A stretch of 57,228 bases of DNA from Candidatus Heimdallarchaeota archaeon (lineage in GTDB: Archaea; Asgardarchaeota; Heimdallarchaeia; Heimdallarchaeales; Heimdallarchaeaceae), in contig JAEOSZ010000052.1 of assembly GCA_016840095.1 (NCBI GenBank), forward strand, positions 1 to 57,228. Reading direction: 5' to 3'. A model generated the notes under the pieces. It saw only the letters and a list, made by a program, of their open reading frames with translations, did no database searches and had not been told where the DNA came from. A program made the translations under genes and the position numbers. Each line of letters begins with the position of its first letter. The first letter of the stretch is position 1. Below, piece by piece: positions 25,536-25,919 of the stretch.

Positions 25536-25621
25536 CAGCGATCCTTTCAAATTGAATAATAACTACAAAAGATATTATCCTATTAAGATTTTGTCATTGT
25601 AATTGGCTAAGAAGAAATTTA

Positions 25622-25698
25622 GAGAATAATGAATCCGGGTGAGCTAGGTAATTCATTGAATCATCTGTTCGTGCATTTTCATCATTTCCATCATTCTC
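25622..25698 (-). ncRNA. C/D box guide sRNA, copy 1
   Basis: Minus strand: GAGAAUGAUG stem, box C AUGAUGA, D' CAGA, C' CAAUGA, guide ACCUAGCUCAC, D-like CGGA, closing CAUUAUUCUC (10-bp stem with one G-U). Confidence 0.7.
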
Positions 25699-25780
25699 AC
25701 TAGTAGAGGGAAAATTTAGGATATAACAGTTTCTGAATAGAACAAGGCATTGTTCTCTCTGTAATTATATGAAGTAGAAT

Positions 25781-25863
25781 AATGAGAATAACGTAATCAG
25801 AGTGAGCTAGGAAAGTCATCGAATCATCGGTTGTAATTCCTCATCATTTTCGCTATTCTCATT
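25781..25863 (-). ncRNA. C/D box guide sRNA, copy 2
   Basis: Minus strand: AAUGAGAAUAGCG stem, box C AUGAUGA, D' CCGA, C' CGAUGA, guide CCUAGCUCAC, box D CUGA, closing CGUUAUUCUCAUU (13-bp stem with one G-U). Confidence 0.8.
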
Positions 25864-25919
25864 TAAGGATTAGATTAACTAAATATATGAGTTACGAATA
25901 TTTACAAAAAAAAGAGTGA

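Follow-up and report, generated by a model that had tools for sequence, protein, structure and literature searches.

Archaeal box C/D sRNAs are generally about 50 nt long (PMC6009581), and a paired terminal stem is absent from many of them (PMC5062973). Dual guides in archaea normally target sites less than 100 nt apart (PMC7994747), and U2552 of the large-subunit (LSU) rRNA is a predicted guide target in five of the seven archaea studied (PMC4644070). Two described sRNAs, sR127 of S. acidocaldarius and sR56 of M. kandleri, carry the same D guide as the RNA reported here and measure 58-59 nt in an RNA-seq-derived list (Dennis et al. 2015, PMC4644070 supplement). In yeast, snR71 guides Am2946 and snR52 guides Um2921 (PMC10899779). 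A full-length duplication of a C/D sRNA gene that is limited to one lineage, with one guide diverging, has been described for Pyrobaculum sR113a/b (Lui et al. 2018, PMC6009581). Our literature search found no paper on C/D sRNAs of Asgard archaea.

Here we analyse an intergenic locus of a Heimdall genome. The window, that is, the whole stretch of DNA analysed (57,228 nucleotides), is contig C29 of a 3.44-Mb, 89%-complete MAG, labelled G000 below. We conclude with high confidence, reading from sequence and its conservation, that the locus holds two unannotated box C/D guide RNA genes on the minus strand, each probably a unit apart from the glycosyltransferase gene downstream: copy B, the ancestral gene, and copy A, its tandem duplicate. 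Methylation is predicted at the equivalents of E. coli A2577 and U2552.

Results

Two paralogous elements in a 369-nt gap

The gap lies between two minus-strand ORFs, which encode a 350-aa protein with no Pfam match and a 549-aa GT2 glycosyltransferase (Table 1). A repeat finder and pairwise alignment place in it two paralogues of about 80 nt, with a start-to-start distance of 162-163 nt and 84% column identity; the original prediction had put two ~80-nt copies ~160 nt apart in a gap of ~370 nt, and these measurements agree with it. On the minus strand, both copies read stem - AUGAUGA - guide - xUGA (D') - short loop - AUGAxxx (C') - 12-nt guide - C(U/G)GA (D) - stem. Both are bounded by a 10-bp inverted repeat, forming the stems GAGAAUGAUG/CAUUAUUCUC in copy A and GAGAAUAGCG/CGUUAUUCUC in copy B; the repeat of copy B can be extended to 13 bp. 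Each stem contains one G-U pair on the minus strand, for which the plus-strand equivalent is a C-A mismatch, and the orientation that had been deduced from this mismatch holds. The G-U pairs, the boxes and the antisense matches to rRNA are all confined to the minus strand.

The order C, D', C', D that had been proposed for this strand is retained, but the boundaries of its inner boxes are not. Alignment with the orthologues places D' at AUGA, 3 nt downstream of CAGA/CCGA, and moves C' to AUGACUU in copy B and AUGAAUU in copy A. The D' register is fixed by genera g2 and g4, where the inner boxes are canonical (CUGA, followed by AUGAUGA or GUGAUGA), while they are degenerate in G000; the distance from D' to C' is 3-8 nt. 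A D' box at CAGA/CCGA was rejected: CAGA would put an N+5 mismatch on the only good site of the copy A guide, and the orthologues fix the xUGA that follows.

Searched against Rfam, neither copy, nor any other part of the whole window, gave a match at gathering score. With permissive thresholds, the sub-threshold matches of the two copies are weak and nearly all to box C/D families on the minus strand.

Table 1 Features of the intergenic gap and its flanks, in window positions and in the order of minus-strand reading
Feature	Position	Strand	Basis and remarks
Flanking ORF, 350 aa	25920..26972	(-)	no Pfam match
Copy B TATA-like element ATATATTTA	25880..25888	(-)	centred ~25 nt before the G of GAGAAU; identical in the 5 closest genomes
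Copy B, conserved dual-guide box C/D sRNA (predicted)	25781..25863; core 25784-25860	(-)	covariance model R1, 102 bits; 83 nt including 3 outer A-U pairs
Copy B 5' arm GAGAAUAGCG	25851..25860	(-)	pair counts
Copy B A14, A15, two extra pairs beside the kink-turn	25849-25850	(-)	pair counts
Copy B box C AUGAUGA	25841..25847	(-)	AUGA invariant in 32 sequences
Copy B D' guide GGAAUUACAACCG	25828..25840	(-)	core ACAACC predicted to pair with LSU A-loop GGUUGU; N+5 = U2552 equivalent
Copy B box D' AUGA (CUGA in genera g2, g4, g5)	25824..25827	(-)	UGA invariant
Copy B box C' AUGACUU (AUGAUGA/GUGAUGA in genera g2, g4)	25813..25819	(-)	RUGA invariant
Copy B D guide UCCUAGCUCACU	25801..25812	(-)	pairs with LSU GUGAGCUGGG, 10 bp including 1 G-U; N+5 = A2577 equivalent
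Copy B box D CUGA	25797..25800	(-)	orthologue alignment
Copy B 3' arm CGUUAUUCUC	25784..25793	(-)	pair counts
Copy A TATA-like TTATAT, duplicated	25721..25726	(-)	~25 nt upstream of copy A; spacer aligns with copy B promoter region
Copy A, lineage-specific duplicate	25619..25701; core 25622-25698	(-)	covariance model R1, 76.5 bits; present in G000 and G013 only
Copy A 5' arm GAGAAUGAUG	25689-25698	(-)	pairs with the 3' arm
Copy A box C AUGAUGA	25679..25685	(-)	sequence reading, alignment
Copy A D' guide AAAUGCACGAACAG	25665..25678	(-)	best rRNA site A-loop UUGUUCG..CAUU, 7+4 bp; N+5 = U2555 equivalent
Copy A box D' AUGA	25661..25664	(-)	aligned with D' of the orthologues
Copy A box C' AUGAAUU	25650..25656	(-)	orthologue alignment
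Copy A D guide ACCUAGCUCACC	25638..25649	(-)	11 bp to the A2577 site
Copy A box D CGGA, non-consensus	25634..25637	(-)	GA kept; U-to-G makes U-G in place of the U-U pair
Copy A 3' arm CAUUAUUCUC	25622..25631	(-)	pairs with GAGAAUGAUG
Conserved motif AAAUCUUAAUAG	25575-25590	(-)	also at the equivalent place in all orthologous loci
Flanking ORF, GT2 glycosyltransferase, 549 aa	23901..25550	(-)

Conservation across the family

By BLAST, followed by covariance model R1, the element is found in 29 of the 30 genomes of the family, in five genera, as a single copy that always lies between the same two genes. The once-per-genome count concerns the orthologue of copy B: G000 and G013 carry copy A besides. 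Six divergent orthologues were found by the covariance model and missed by BLAST. In families f2-f4 of the same order, neither method found the RNA; a pattern search for the D guide across Asgard genomes gave two matches in family f3.

The covariance search had been proposed together with the original prediction, which was also to fall if the boxes were not conserved in relatives. The 32 aligned sequences have an invariant AUGA in box C, UGA in D', RUGA in C' and GA in D. Constraint also shows in ACAACC, the core of the D' guide, and in AGCUCAC of the D guide (alignments A3, A4, A5). The spacer between C' and D is exactly 12 nt in all 32 sequences; C and D' are separated by 13 nt in copy B and by 14 nt in copy A. 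We take copy B to be the ancestral gene, under purifying selection. The element unites the features by which box C/D sRNAs are recognised: C and D boxes, a terminal stem, D' and C' boxes, spacers of ~12 nt, a D guide antisense to rRNA and partner proteins encoded in the genome.

A closing helix maintained by covariation

The closing helix comprises 12 bp, arranged as 10 bp, a 1-nt bulge and 2 bp (A-U/G-C pairs beside the kink-turn). Its positions are 90-93% paired, the figure for the 32-sequence alignment being 90%; when the partners are slid, pairing drops to 40-60%. Between 5 and 7 pairs are changed on both sides (7 of 12 in the 32-sequence alignment), and the observed covariation was reached by 0 of 500 shuffles. 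In genus g5 the stem has a wholly different sequence with its pairing retained, and in the G005 clade it reads GGGAAU/AUUCCC. Since the covariation exceeds both the slid and the shuffled controls, and the pairing survives changes of sequence, the helix has been selected as an RNA structure; the covarying terminal stem of 10-13 bp that had been predicted is thereby confirmed.

Within the genus, the outer 7 bp (GAGAAUA/UAUUCUC) are nearly invariant, beyond what pairing requires. A kink-turn can be drawn at the inner end, with the invariant A15-U73 beside a putative 3-nt bulge. A bulge-helix-bulge splicing motif in the long stem was rejected on inspection: the stem has no 3-nt bulges and one 1-nt bulge only.

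Predicted rRNA targets

A search of the G000 assembly found no assembled rRNA; the LSU and SSU of same-genus relatives served for target prediction, with E. coli rrlH as a check on the LSU numbering. The D guide (U/A)CCUAGCUCAC pairs with LSU 5'-GUGAGCUGGG over 10-11 bp, with one G-U, and its N+5 nucleotide is the A2577 equivalent. This site takes the top rank in LSU plus SSU. In every family member the D guide pairs with the same LSU site over 10-12 bp, and the variants CCUAG, CUCAG and CUCGG are all compatible with this pairing.

The invariant core of the D' guide would put N+5 on U2552 of the A-loop, so that the predicted D and D' targets are 25 nt apart, that of D' being the upstream one. 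The D' duplex of copy B varies in length. On the rRNA of the closest relatives it has 6 bp, short of the 8-9 bp that a guide duplex usually needs (PMC6009581); other species reach 7-8 bp, and the G005 clade 10-11 bp (GCGAACAACC). LSU domain I offers a 10-bp site (position ~218 in G013) that was also considered for this guide; it ranks below the A-loop, because its pairing is lost in G004 and G016 while ACAACC is invariant.

Two observations concern the rRNA itself. The LSU A-loop of G016 (L049), GGGGUUGUACGCCC, has an A at the otherwise invariant U2555 position, and this A pairs with a U of the G016 D' guide UUACAACC (L017/L074), in a duplex of 7 bp plus a G-U; the match could reflect guide-target co-variation, an assembly error or contaminant rRNA. 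Separately, the LSU of G008, G013 and G016 (L043, L044, L049) diverges abruptly after ..CCGUUGUGAGA, at about E. coli 2600, reading ..GAGAUGGAUUUAAGC.. where other members of the genus read ..GAGACAGGU... These three LSU genes measure 3577-4235 nt, against a model of 2987 positions. This suggests an insertion in domain V, possibly an intron.

Partner proteins, transcription and proposed assembly

Fibrillarin (PF01269, 308.9 bits) and Nop5 (PF01798, 225.4 bits) are encoded next to each other on the minus strand of contig C1 (C1:6052-7586), which is the usual archaeal arrangement, and L7Ae (PF01248, 90 bits) is encoded on contig C10. Two further weak matches to fibrillarin-like methyltransferases lie on contigs C2 and C61 of the same genome.

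Every orthologue has an A/T-rich, TATA-like box whose centre precedes the helix by ~25 nt; the one preceding copy B, ATATATTTA, may act as its promoter. A separate conserved A/T-rich motif, CTTAATAG, lies between the sRNA and the GT2 start. Given these two elements, the sRNA and the GT2 gene are likely to be separate transcription units. The conserved motif AAAUCUUAAUAG follows the sRNA by 15-40 nt and precedes the GT2 start codon by about 40-50 nt; it probably represents the BRE/TATA of the glycosyltransferase gene.

By homology with archaeal C/D sRNPs, the following assembly can be proposed. Copies A and B would each be transcribed, probably from a TATA-type promoter of their own, as units apart from the downstream glycosyltransferase gene. 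The helix of 10+2 bp would join boxes C and D in a kink-turn with a 3-nt bulge AAU, sheared G-A/A-G pairs, a U-U pair and a G-C pair, while D' and C' would form a kink-loop. L7Ae would bind both motifs and two Nop5-fibrillarin units would follow. The 12-nt D guide, on LSU 5'-GUGAGCUGGG, would direct 2'-O-methylation of the A2577 equivalent (yeast A2946), and the D' guide, on the helix-92 A-loop, would select U2552.

Other C/D sRNAs of the genome

Crude C/D scans of the whole genome, seeded on antisense matches to rRNA, did not outperform a reversed-rRNA control (202 vs 179, 72 vs 81), and only individually convincing matches were retained from them. A second long-stem box C/D sRNA lies at G000:C163:11290-11391 on the minus strand (L091:205-295:-). 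It has a stem of 11-12 bp and reads GAGGAAUCAUC - AUGAGGA - AACAACGGUCGU - GUGA - loop - GUGAUCG - CUGAUGGGCGGA - CUGA - GGUGAUUCUUC. Aligned by hand, its guides fall on LSU helices 92-93, at about the equivalents of C2590 and C2558, just 3' of the copy B targets. Conserved copies of it occur in 10 other genomes of the genus; its outer stem GAGGAAU/AUUCUUC resembles the stem of copies A and B, and its guides are unrelated to theirs. A further sRNA, of the classical minimal C/D type, at G000:C122:140553-140600 on the plus strand (L092:220-274), reads AUGAUGU..CUGA..UGAUGA..CUGA and has a terminal stem of 3 bp. Both of its guides are antisense to SSU rRNA, and it gives a weak Rfam match to a Pyrococcus C/D RNA (28.8 bits, E 0.001). 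Short- and long-stem sRNAs therefore coexist in G000.

Origin and fate of copy A

Because the spacer preceding copy A can be aligned to the copy B promoter region, the duplicated unit comprises promoter and gene, ~163 nt in all. A tandem duplication of this unit in the common ancestor of the G000 species and G013 would have produced copy A, which would then have kept the D guide, weakened its D box to CGGA and moved its D' guide by 3 nt to U2555. As had been predicted, the D guide is common to both copies and the D' guide of copy A is altered; the two D' guides do not differ completely, however, since 3' AC(G)AAC.G is found in both. Relative to copy B, the copy A guide is shifted in register by 3 nt along the A-loop (U2555 vs U2552). 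When this guide is shuffled, an equal score is reached somewhere in rRNA in 14% of cases.

Duplication, as originally proposed, is supported by the paralogy of the copies and by a repeated unit that includes a TATA-like promoter; the retargeting of one guide that was to have followed is only one reading of copy A. Quite possibly, copy A is a pseudogene without function: a recent tandem duplicate that is being lost by drift. The locus would then have one working guide RNA, and the altered D' guide would be a product of drift. Copy A occurs in just two of the 30 family genomes, and in G013 its box D is CAGU, its D guide is broken and its stem has 2 mismatches. Between G000 and G013, its 3' half is 68% identical, near the 61% of the neutral spacer, against 95% for copy B; the covariance model score falls from 102 bits for copy B to 76.5 for copy A of G000 and 55 for that of G013. 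The decay in G013 and the low identity of the 3' half indicate that copy A is under relaxed constraint. Yet copy A of G000 preserves its 12-bp stem, boxes C, D' and C', its D guide and the 12-nt spacing. Although its D box reads CGGA, the essential GA is there, and C-G and G-U pairing with box C remains feasible. The 5' half, which carries the new D' guide, shows 87% conservation from one genome to the other, and this guide finds its best site at the same A-loop, as only 2.2% of its shuffles do. With CGGA in G000, and with box D, D guide and part of the stem lost from the G013 orthologue, decay and neofunctionalisation are equally likely: copy A may be either a young guide with a new register or a copy heading to decay.

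Two other explanations would deny both copies the role of guides. They could be cis-acting leaders whose kink-turns bind L7Ae and regulate the downstream GT2 gene: they lie just upstream of it, in the same orientation and in conserved synteny, and L7Ae reportedly binds mRNA leaders in archaea. We consider such leaders very unlikely, as the most conserved parts of the element are the guides, antisense to rRNA in agreement with the N+5 rule, and not the kink-turn alone. The separate CTTAATAG motif before the GT2 start is moreover consistent with GT2 having its own promoter, and the same guide RNA is present in other Asgard families, Sulfolobus and Methanopyrus (matched by RNA sequence). The terminal inverted repeats of 10-13 bp around ~57 nt, their occurrence in two copies and a plus strand that folds as well as the minus strand could also recall miniature inverted-repeat mobile elements, or chance inverted repeats with coincidental RNA features. 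However, a search of the rest of the 3.44-Mb assembly with the sequence of copies A and B returned only short chance matches, with no further copy and no dispersed repeat; the element occupies one syntenic locus per genome over five genera, its helix is kept by compensatory changes, and its boxes and rRNA antisense are conserved. A mobile or accidental origin is accordingly given almost no credence.

Discussion

Guide RNA genes, then, are the reading that we retain for this locus. They give Asgard genomes, in which small RNAs have hardly been described, a well-supported guide RNA family that was previously unannotated. They also predict that Heimdall ribosomes are 2'-O-methylated at U2552 of the A-loop and at A2577, both at the peptidyl-transferase centre. 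Copies A and B are ordinary in kind; their extras are a long helix, covarying and specific to the whole family, and a young tandem duplicate in partial decay. Together these make a small example of structural drift and of gene birth and death among sRNAs, of interest mainly to specialists.

The long helix most likely stabilises the juxtaposition of C and D and the assembly of the RNP in an A+T-rich mesophile. A bolder proposal, which we hold to be improbable, is that the 12-13 bp helix serves as a signal for assembly or processing specific to the lineage, in functional analogy to the external stems that aid the assembly of eukaryotic snoRNPs, and that copy A is a guide caught sliding 3 nt along the A-loop to the new site U2555. 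It draws on the near-invariant outer 7 bp and on the look-alike outer stem of the second long-stem sRNA. If the helix were such a signal, a distinct route of C/D sRNA biogenesis would have evolved in this Heimdall family.

Comparison with known systems

The C-to-D core of the RNA (51-52 nt, with a 12-nt spacer and both guides used) is typically archaeal. It shares with sR127 and sR56 the D guide ..C(A/C)CAGCUCAC-N-CUGA, antisense to the same LSU site and directed at the A2577 equivalent, as well as a core of ~50 nt, the box order and the N+5 rule. It differs from them in its D' guide sequences and in its ends: ~3-4 nt flank the boxes of sR127 and sR56, whereas the Heimdall RNA is closed by a helix of 12-13 bp and has a predicted length of 77-83 nt. 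Outside the boxes and the D guide the similarity is nil, so that common descent is indistinguishable from convergence on a conserved target.

Closer counterparts occur within the Asgard archaea. Of the 400 Asgard genomes covered by the pattern search, 51 contain this D guide preceded by a C' box; the reversed control gave 5. Orthologous RNAs of families f10 and f11 (L104-L108) read AUGAUGA - GGCGAACA.. - C' - ..CAGCUCAC-N-CUGA, with 50-52 nt from C to D and both predicted targets. With 8-10 bp, the duplex of their D' guide GGCGAACA(AC/GA) and the A-loop is longer than that of copy B, and their D' boxes are very degenerate (AGGA, GUAA). Their terminal stems have 3-5 bp only, and the long helix is thus a derived feature of the Heimdall family of the window. 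The same short-stemmed dual guides speak against the likeness to eukaryotic snoRNA precursors that the long stems had first called to mind.

The yeast snoRNAs have the same pair of target nucleotides: subtracting 369 from A2946 and U2921 gives E. coli A2577 and U2552. The guide of snR71, ACUCAGCUCAC, is near-identical to the D guide described here, and this shared target and guide explain the weak Rfam match to snR71, the best obtained; at 20.7 bits against a gathering score of 60, it does not make the Heimdall RNA a member of the snR71 family. In yeast the work is divided between two separate snoRNAs, snR71 and snR52, while a single dual-guide Heimdall RNA is predicted to do both tasks. No special link between Asgard archaea and eukaryotes follows, because the same target is guided in Crenarchaeota and Euryarchaeota (Sulfolobus, Methanopyrus).

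For copy A, the nearest parallel is Pyrobaculum sR113a/b, along with other archaeal C/D sRNA genes that have been duplicated: copy A is likewise a full-length duplicate, restricted to one lineage, with one diverged guide. The Heimdall duplication differs in being tandem, in that its 163-nt unit includes the promoter, and in that one daughter is decaying in a sister species.
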